Source: an uncultured Candidatus Saccharibacteria bacterium
GTDB lineage: Bacteria; Patescibacteriota; Minisyncoccia; Phycocordibacterales; Zambryskibacteraceae
Length of the DNA stretch: 64,000 bases
Assembly: GCA_964642835.1 (NCBI GenBank)
Contig: CAZXQA010000001.1
Location: 325,387 to 389,386 of the forward strand
Reading direction: 5' to 3'
The translations under genes and the position numbers were made by a program. Shown here piece after piece: positions 23,984 through 25,903 of the stretch (positions are counted from its first letter, which is position 1; each line of letters begins with the position of its first letter). The notes beneath the pieces are model-generated. The model worked only from the letters and a program-made list of their open reading frames with translations, did no database searches and had not been told where the DNA came from.

Positions 23984-24021
23984 AAAACCGCCGCGAGCTC
24001 TGCCTCGCGGCGGTTTTGTCT
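23984..24021. terminator. Bidirectional rho-independent terminator.
   Basis: aaaaa-ccgccgcgag-ctctg-cctcgcggcgg-ttttgt. Confidence 0.65.
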
Positions 24022-24718
24022 ACTTGAACTTCGTCTCGGCGTACTTACCGAGAAGCTTCCGGGCAAATTGGCGCTCATGCTTCGGTACGATGACCGTGAG
24101 CGGCACGCTGACCGGATAGGTTTCGAAAAGATCAAACTGCACAGTCGTGTCAACACGTCCGGACAGTCGCGTGAATTCGTCAGGGATGAGACCGAGACTT
24201 CTGAGTCCCTCTTTGAACCCGCCGTTAGTGAGCGGATACACGTCGCGGCACTTCAGGTTGACCGTCTCCACACCCAAGTGCCCCATGACACTCTTGGTTG
24301 AATGTGGGTGGACATCCTTCCAAGCCTTAATGAGGGAGATATCGACTGCCAACCCCCACTTCACACTGGCCGCCAGGTACTGGTGTACATCTGGGGCTTC
24401 TATGTGAGGCTTCAAGGCGGAGCGACGTTTGCCGTCCTCACCCTTTTCACCTGGATTGTCATAGGAGAAGAGGAAGTACCAGGCCCGATCGAAGGGAAAG
24501 GCGGCCATCCGCTCGTAACCCTCGATCTGCTCGGTGCTTAAGCGGAATCCGTAAGAGGATTGATAGCCCGAAGACTTCACCTCAACCACCAGGGACTCAT
24601 TCCAAAGCGTCAGATCCCCATGTTCGTCCCGCAACAATTCTCCGCCGATGATCCGGTGCGTTAGTTCTTCGAAAAATTGCCCGACGTAGGTATTCTTACT
24701 TCCAGGGATTGGCTCCAC
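24020..24718 (-). CDS. Hypothetical protein with a PD-(D/E)xK nuclease-like motif.
   Basis: 232 aa. FFEEL...GDLTLWNESLVVEVKSS fits an E...D...E-x-K arrangement. It is flanked by terminators on both sides. Confidence 0.5.
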   Translation of the reverse strand: MEPIPGSKNTYVGQFFEELTHRIIGGELLRDEHGDLTLWNESLVVEVKSSGYQSSYGFRLSTEQIEGYERMAAFPFDRAWYFLFSYDNPGEKGEDGKRRSALKPHIEAPDVHQYLAASVKWGLAVDISLIKAWKDVHPHSTKSVMGHLGVETVNLKCRDVYPLTNGGFKEGLRSLGLIPDEFTRLSGRVDTTVQFDLFETYPVSVPLTVIVPKHERQFARKLLGKYAETKFK

Positions 24719-24776
24719 AAAACCTCCAAGGAACTTGTGACCTGGTGCTAGTGTATCACGTGCCTTTCCCCAACTT

Positions 24777-24805
24777 AAAACTCCCCGCCATGGCGGGGAG
24801 TTTTA
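24777..24805. terminator. Bidirectional terminator hairpin.
   Basis: aaaa-ctccccgcc-at-ggcggggag-tttta. Confidence 0.6.
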
Positions 24806-24813
24806 GATCGAGC

Positions 24814-25011
24814 TTAACTCTTGGAAGCCCTCGCCTTATCTTCTGAGGCGTCGGCCTTTTCGTTGGCGTCGTCGGCTCTCACCTTAGCGGCGTCAGCTTC
24901 CTTGCGGTCAGCATCGGCAGCCGAGGCATCGGCTTCTTCGCGGGCATCAGCGGCCTTATTTTCAGCGTCTTGGACTTTGTCGGACATGGATATTTGGTTA
25001 AGGACTAACAC
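24814..25011 (-). CDS. Small acidic Ala/Asp/Glu/Lys-rich low-complexity protein, about 57-65 aa, stress-protein-like.
   Basis: MSDKVQDAENKAADAREEADASAADADRKEADAAKVRADDANEKADASEDKARASKS. The start codon is uncertain. Confidence 0.4.
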   Translation of the reverse strand: MLVLNQISMSDKVQDAENKAADAREEADASAADADRKEADAAKVRADDANEKADASEDKARASKS

Positions 25012-25049
25012 TATATAAGACGAAGGAGGACTTTAAATACTTTCCAAAC

Positions 25050-25086
25050 AAAAAGGGCGTCCGAGTATATCGAGGCGCCCTTTTTG
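25050..25086. terminator. Bidirectional terminator (imperfect stem).
   Basis: aaaaa-gggcgtccgag-tatat-cgaggcgccc-ttttt. Confidence 0.5.
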
Positions 25087-25363
25087 AATTATTTATTTGC
25101 CCGCTTCCTTGTTCATGGCGCCATGTGTAGCCTCTCCTTCCTTCTTCACTGGCTCAACAGGCTTCTGCTTGTCTTCGTGAGTACCCGGAACCTTCTGTTC
25201 TGTGTCTTTGTTTTGGTCTTGCATATACACAATGACGGAGCGCGGGGTGGAATCTGACAAGGAAGAAGTTATCCACCGCAATCCCCACCTTATGCACAGA
25301 ATTGTTCGACAGAGTGGCTTGACCGACAAACTCCTTCCGCGCCAAAGGTGATAAAATAATGGC

Positions 25364-25903
25364 ATGAAGAAATTCCTCCTTATCATCGTTCTCATCGCTC
25401 TCGCTATCTTCTTCTATCTCTGGCACGCGGGCGCGCCGCAAGAAGCGGAAAATATTGAGATCCCAACGGGAACCACCTTCCACCCAGATGCTTCCTCGGC
25501 AGCCTTCACGATTGAGGGCGACAAGATTACGCTCTCCAAAGGCGAGAACGAAACGACCGATGACAACGGCTTCGTATCCGAGACCAAACTTCTCGACGAG
25601 CGAGCTCTCGGTGATTTGAATAACGATGGCAAAGAGGATGTCGTCGTCCTTCTCTCTCAGTCCGGCGGCGGCTCTGGCACCTTTATCTACGTCGCGGCCT
25701 ATGTCTCGGGTCCTGTCTCATATAAAGGAAGCGAAGCCATCTTCCTCGGTGACCGCATTGCCCCTCAGGCTGTTTCTATTACCAACGGAGTCGCCACCGT
25801 GAAATTCCTCGATCGCAAAGAGAACGAACCTTTCGCCGCCGAGCCAACCGTCTCCGTTTCCAAACAGTTCATCTTCAAAAGCGGCGCCTTTGTGGAAAAG
25901 TAG
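25364..25903 (+). CDS. Hypothetical secreted or membrane-anchored protein (179 aa).
   Basis: An N-terminal signal/anchor MKKFLLIIVLIALAIFFYLW, then a hydrophilic domain. Confidence 0.6.
   Translation: MKKFLLIIVLIALAIFFYLWHAGAPQEAENIEIPTGTTFHPDASSAAFTIEGDKITLSKGENETTDDNGFVSETKLLDERALGDLNNDGKEDVVVLLSQSGGGSGTFIYVAAYVSGPVSYKGSEAIFLGDRIAPQAVSITNGVATVKFLDRKENEPFAAEPTVSVSKQFIFKSGAFVEK

Follow-up and report, generated by a model that had tools for sequence, protein, structure and literature searches.

The PD-(D/E)xK superfamily includes several enzymes with which a small, stand-alone nuclease can be compared. Among the closest known systems are the archaeal Holliday-junction resolvases Hjc and Hje (PDB 2wcw, 1gef, 1ob8, 1hh1), of which Hjc is a single-domain enzyme of ~120-140 aa. 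RecU (PDB 1zp7, 1y1o, 2fco) is a Holliday-junction resolvase of Firmicutes and Mollicutes, and ordinary resolvases have been reported in CPR genomes (PMC10221324). Among modification-dependent restriction enzymes, DpnI has its catalytic domain first and its recognition domain second, and BisI-family enzymes carry an AD...Q-V/I-K motif (PMC11347163). I-Ssp6803I is a PD-(D/E)xK homing endonuclease that is encoded in an intron.

Here we describe a solitary gene in a 64,000-nt stretch of DNA (the whole stretch analysed, hereafter the window). Pfam, NCBIfam, PHROGs and PADLOC have no entry for its family, yet the superfamily to which it belongs is very well known. One more PD-(D/E)xK nuclease is unsurprising in itself. 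The value of this one is that it is uncatalogued, is apparently confined to CPR bacteria, and joins a minimal Hjc-like core to a C-terminal domain for which no structural relative was detectable.

Gene Structure and Transcription Units

The features of the locus, in window coordinates, are:

24020-24718, minus strand: coding sequence of the 232-aa stand-alone PD-(D/E)xK nuclease, from the ORF list; GTG start, stop codon at 24020-24022
24311-24718, minus strand: N-terminal catalytic domain, residues 1-136
24670-24668 (E17), 24616-24614 (D35), 24583-24581 (E46), 24577-24575 (K48) and 24529-24527 (Q64), minus strand: catalytic-domain codons
24023-24310, minus strand: basic C-terminal domain (residues 137-232) with a presumed nucleic-acid-binding role
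24723-24727, minus strand: Shine-Dalgarno-like GGAGG, read from the sequence, with 4 nt between it and the GTG start downstream
23984-24017, both strands: bidirectional hairpin terminator T1 with 14-bp perfect arms, common to the convergent PhnB-like and nuclease genes
24776-24805, both strands: hairpin terminator T2, a perfect palindrome located after the 57-aa ORF stop and before the start of the nuclease
24814-24987, minus strand: 57-aa acidic ORF (pI 4.5), just upstream of the nuclease on the same strand
25049-25086: hairpin T3, 3′ of the 43-aa ORF
25093-25224, minus strand: 43-aa charged ORF

The earlier note on this DNA had read a 232-aa ORF with an E...D...EVK arrangement. The arrangement is present as E17, D35, E46 and K48, and its conservation is far above chance. 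The gene has a GC content of 0.546 and a GC3 of 0.670, the same as host and neighbour values. The GGAGG before the start also occurs in the orthologue loci L015 and L021.

The same note had placed terminators on both flanks of the gene, and T1 and T2 do fold strongly on both strands. Both are palindromic hairpins, with arms that terminate in runs of A and T. For T1 the folding energy is -29.7 kcal/mol on one strand (z -8.0) and -29.5 kcal/mol on the other (z -7.1). T2 folds at -29 kcal/mol (z -5.7), again with about the same energy on either strand, and the z-scores of the two hairpins against shuffles lie between -5 and -8. With terminators on both flanks, the nuclease gene is monocistronic. 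Given the positions of T1, T2 and T3, the nuclease, the 57-aa ORF and the 43-aa ORF are three separate transcription units.

Family, Active Site, and Fold

A word-indexed search yielded 16 homologues that are 43-55% identical to the nuclease. A profile search run exhaustively through 1.84 billion cluster representatives yielded 187 homologue clusters (E ≤0.001). The clusters are tiny. Most members are 220-260 aa long and cover both halves of the protein, and the two-domain layout is conserved across the family. The label of orphan given to the gene previously is thus apt for a solitary gene but not for a protein with this many relatives. Few of the 16 close homologues carry an organism name; those that do are Parcubacteria or Paceibacterota, and one further named member of the wider family is again Parcubacteria. 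The family appears to be confined to CPR/Parcubacteria. Two atypical homologues were set aside. The N-terminal extension of P0033 has no informative domains and is probably an over-called start, and the long homologue P0124, also with no informative domains, is probably a spurious repeat match.

No Pfam, PADLOC, PHROGs or NCBIfam model matches the nuclease. Among 68 diverse homologues there was likewise no meaningful match to these libraries, the lone exception being a single member that matches NF002581 (the RecU test) at E 0.001. Profile searches of the PDB by sequence returned nothing relevant to the nuclease.

E17, D35, E46 and K48 are invariant in all 16 close homologues. The 68 diverse homologues all keep E46, K48 and Q64. 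In this wider set conservation is at least 90% for D35, Y81, Y86 and D126, and E17 is only the majority residue. The AF2 model (pLDDT 88.5, pTM 0.88) has the alpha-beta-beta-beta-alpha-beta core fold of the PD-(D/E)xK superfamily. In it E17 lies in helix 1, D35 in strand 2 and E46-x-K48 in strand 3, and Q64 sits at the start of the helix after strand 3. The acidic strand-2 residue, the strand-3 (D/E)-x-K and the helix-1 glutamate by which the superfamily is recognized are all conserved. The proposal that the gene encodes a nuclease therefore passes both checks named in the earlier note, that of the fold in the structure model and that of catalytic-residue conservation among homologues. Judged by the model and the alignments, the gene product is a PD-(D/E)xK superfamily nuclease, and it is predicted to be metal-dependent.

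The top structural matches are Holliday-junction resolvases: A. fulgidus Hjc (score 8.9), Hje (8.5) and P. furiosus Hjc (8.2). NhoI (7.8), RecU (7.6), PvuII (6.9) and I-Ssp6803I (6.9) also match, and the type II enzymes among the matches include PvuII, HinP1I, HhaI, MspI and EcoRV. The C-terminal domain is basic and has ~95 residues. No structural relative of this domain was detectable, and no modification-reading fold (winged helix, SRA, EVE/PUA and similar) could be assigned to it.

Genomic Context and Putative Function

No methyltransferase, helicase or ATPase adjoins the nuclease gene in the window. Neither these nor any conserved partner lie beside it in ~12 distinct loci, in all of which it is solitary. 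A solitary nuclease with no methyltransferase is what type IV and IIM enzymes have; the adjacent methyltransferase of type II restriction-modification is missing from the window and from ~12 related loci. No immunity gene accompanies the nuclease in any genome examined. PADLOC gave 0 matches for the protein and 68 family members, and there is no defence island at any nuclease locus examined. In two cases (L003 and the contig with P0008) the gene is wedged between secY and adk with gaps of merely 72-84 bp.

We propose that the protein would be a self-sufficient, single-chain, metal-dependent endonuclease, transcribed alone and with no need of a neighbouring partner. The N-terminal domain would provide a complete PD-(D/E)xK active site for Mg2+-dependent cleavage, the basic C-terminal domain would probably hold or select the nucleic-acid substrate, and the enzyme would probably act as a dimer, like its structural relatives. 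Since there is no methyltransferase or immunity partner, the substrate must be something that the host chromosome rarely offers; cleavage would be limited to what that chromosome rarely or normally does not present. Catalytic activity, DNA as the substrate and a role in defence are what we infer from these features, and of the last we would say that it is possible.

Our leading reading, which we hold tentatively, is a type IV/IIM-like solitary restriction enzyme, laid out like DpnI, that acts on foreign or differently modified DNA. In its favour, the nuclease is patchily retained and has no partner, a pattern that fits defence genes. Several points count against it. PADLOC gave no match, none of the loci is in a defence island, and relatives were not found in phages, plasmids or viral contigs. 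The long residence by housekeeping genes (secY/adk, typA, VanY) is unusual for defence, no modification-reading fold was assigned to the C-terminal domain, and a cognate methyltransferase may lie elsewhere in the genome, of which 64 kb were inspected. A more specific idea, that the family is a CPR-restricted class of one-polypeptide restriction enzymes in which an Hjc-like core is joined to a novel basic C-terminal fold reading a DNA modification or foreign feature, seems to us unlikely. If it were true, this would be a minimal 700-bp defence gene for ultra-small bacteria that needs no methyltransferase. Most ultra-small bacteria have no CRISPR. Should the protein turn out to be modification-dependent or structure-selective, it would be a compact, tool-like nuclease and would give insight into how streamlined symbionts police DNA.

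A structure-specific nuclease of repair or recombination (an Hjc/RecU-like resolvase, or a flap or fork nuclease), serving as a dispensable back-up to the canonical resolvases, is a serious if somewhat unlikely alternative, and this reading and the type IV/IIM-like one stand close together. The basic C-terminal domain would then bind branched DNA. That the best structural matches of the Hjc/RecU-like core are Holliday-junction resolvases favours a repair role, as do the 'QIE' motif common to the nuclease and RecU and the housekeeping-like inheritance of the gene. However, minimal resolvases are the default top matches for any compact PD-(D/E)xK core. When Hjc/Hje (n = 4) and RecU alignments were rebuilt from PDB sequences and compared with the nuclease family by hhalign, the probability was 2% for Hjc/Hje, with D...E-V-K in register, and 0.9% for RecU. 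The family is also rare (~187 clusters against the >8000 TypA relatives that were found) and missing from the closest relatives, and CPR genomes are reported to have ordinary resolvases already (PMC10221324).

Membership of the two resolvase families was rejected on similar grounds. For Hjc, no Pfam model matches any of the 68 members, and a nuclease of 232 aa with a conserved second domain does not have the single-domain form. For RecU, the profile-profile result stands beside just the one NF002581 match in 68. On these comparisons the nuclease is a superfamily member outside the Hjc and RecU families.

Inheritance, Loss, and Mobility

The closest relatives were picked by TypA identity (L018, 97%; L017, 95%; L019 and L020, 91%). 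All four keep the glyoxalase, DoxX and PhnB-like genes, the gene for a 179-aa secreted protein (p179) and typA. The nuclease is absent from all four, and tblastn found no remnant of it. In L021/L022 the arrangement is that of the window: typA and p179 flank the nuclease on one side, the nuclease diverges from them, and DoxX comes next; the identities are 52% for the nuclease, 53% for p179 and 47% for DoxX. The nuclease is divergent from typA and adjoins it in L015. L001 and L004 have the same long UvrB...def-fmt-HPF-VanY block as the window, followed by the nuclease, and VanY was confirmed in the window at 17352-18203.

L004 was the one locus found by a motif scan of genome contigs; a scan with the whole nuclease protein found nothing. 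It is on contig CAZSMD010000001.1, which is titled 'Candidatus Saccharibacteria', and it has the fmt-HPF-VanY-nuclease order in common with L001 and the Parcubacteria-like window. Upstream of its nuclease, positions 6400-7600 contain solely overlapping GC-rich ORFs and may encode a structured RNA.

A second subclade has the nuclease next to adk in three genomes (L003, 7060-7758; the JGI contig with P0008; L011, 638-1357). In this subclade it lies within the conserved ribosomal-protein/secY-adk-map operon: in two of the genomes, L003 among them, antisense between secY and adk, and in the third in sense orientation directly upstream of adk. This operon is an unusual home for a non-ribosomal gene.

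The divergence of the nuclease tracks that of its flanking genes (52% against 47-53%), as is expected under vertical descent. The simplest reading is that it is an old chromosomal gene of a Parcubacteria lineage, inherited vertically and often lost. A recent mobile insertion had been suggested by the antisense secY/adk site and by the absence from four close relatives; it was rejected on the syntenic orthologues with their neighbour-like divergence. There are no flanking repeats around the nuclease gene, and no degenerate copies, introns or inteins were seen. No relatives were found in phages or plasmids (tblastn), in viral contigs (two degenerate-motif scans) or in BFVD (fold search). The single viral motif match is inside a portal gene, on the other strand, and is not a true relative. 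Thus none of the marks of mobility was seen, whether intron or intein, repeats, foreign composition, phage or plasmid copies, or discordance with the neighbours.

It is improbable, then, that the gene is a selfish, free-standing homing-type endonuclease which has repeatedly invaded intergenic sites upstream of adk or typA and then been lost. Its recurrence at the adk and typA sites leaves a small residual possibility of this, but the exact junctions and orientation vary between loci, and the host-like GC and GC3, the tracking of flank divergence and the lack of copies, repeats or viral relatives noted above all speak against it. Equally doubtful is a type II restriction-modification system in which the nuclease is paired with a methyltransferase from another part of the genome. 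The fold matches to PvuII and the other type II enzymes would suit such an arrangement, and the contig is at least 487 kb long, of which the window covers 64 kb. It is unusual, however, for R and M genes to be unlinked. There is no DNA methyltransferase within several kb of the nuclease gene at any of ~12 loci, and relatives that have lost the nuclease show no remains of an R-M unit.

A gene of different composition lies nearby in the window. The 2H-phosphoesterase/2'-5' RNA-ligase-like gene at 20982-21560 (Pfam 2_5_RNA_ligase2) has a GC content of 0.337 and a GC3 of 0.33, against ~0.53-0.58 GC in its neighbours, and a tRNA-Asn gene adjoins it at 21633-21709. The segment 20982-21709 resembles an islet that was acquired recently, next to a tRNA gene.

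Small Charged ORFs and the Variable Slot

Two small charged ORFs, of 57 and 43 aa, had been noticed beside the nuclease. Both are also called by public gene callers on identical contigs that come from other sequencing runs, where the gene calls agree with those made here. The 57-aa protein is rich in Ala, Asp, Glu and Lys and has internal periodic repeats (four 30-nt copies). It matches no Pfam family, and it might be a small hydrophilic stress-type protein.

The earlier note had suggested that these acidic ORFs are DNA mimics or antitoxins, and thus partners of the nuclease. Their distribution says otherwise. Three relatives that have no nuclease carry a homologue of the 57-aa ORF together with its leader sequence:

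L017, about 4290-4445: homologue of the 57-aa ORF
L019, about 6950-7095: homologue of the 57-aa ORF
L020, 3910-4146: homologue of the 57-aa ORF

L018, which has neither the nuclease nor the 57-aa ORF, keeps the 43-aa ORF. Conversely, no similar small ORF lies beside the nuclease in the other loci. Several of these leave no room for one, some having gaps of 72-84 bp, and in the window T2 separates the units. The conserved partner, co-inherited or co-lost, that a toxin-antitoxin or inhibitor system would have was not found. Since the small ORFs occur without the nuclease and the nuclease without the small ORFs, a toxin module is unlikely. That these mini-proteins restrain a toxin or defence nuclease is accordingly highly improbable, even though the 57-aa protein has a pI of 4.5 and is encoded just upstream on the same strand, and L018 lacks both it and the nuclease. 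The check removes a tempting but wrong story of acidic DNA-mimic antitoxins. The 57-aa and 43-aa ORFs are resident genes of a variable slot and are independent of the nuclease.

The slot extends over 23974-25363 of the window, from the PhnB-like gene to the gene for the 179-aa secreted protein. L017, L018, L019, L020 and L021 each hold a different set of small minus-strand genes in it. At 25262-25300, upstream of the 43-aa ORF, is a minus-strand block, 'GGGGATAAACTGGGGATTnnGGTGGATAA'. L017, L018 and L019 have conserved this block, each time in front of the first of their small charged ORFs. The block contains DnaA-box-like 9-mers, with a perfect TTATNCACA at 25290-25298, one of two in the window. 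Its role may be regulatory and not that of an origin, because the GC-skew minimum is at ~55-56 kb.

That minimum and the second perfect DnaA box (58551-58559) are near a type IV pilus/competence-like cluster at 55063-62538. The cluster encodes a T2SSF platform protein (58566-59774), two T2SSE ATPases (59786-60847 and 60865-62538) and several proteins of the prepilin type, which carry N-terminal methylation motifs.

Comparison With Known Nucleases

No sequence similarity was found between the nuclease and DpnI or the BisI-family enzymes NhoI and Eco15I. The BisI family also differs in its motif, where the nuclease carries GD...E-V-K. I-Ssp6803I differs in how it is encoded: the nuclease gene is free-standing and apparently vertically inherited. 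Compared with RecU, the nuclease has no stalk region and differs in domain layout and gene context, although the two share the 'QIE' motif. Compared with Hjc and Hje, the nuclease is bacterial (CPR) rather than archaeal, is twice the size, and has both an extra basic C-terminal domain and the invariant Q64, which Hjc does not have. In its layout, with a catalytic domain first and a putative recognition domain second, the nuclease is like DpnI.
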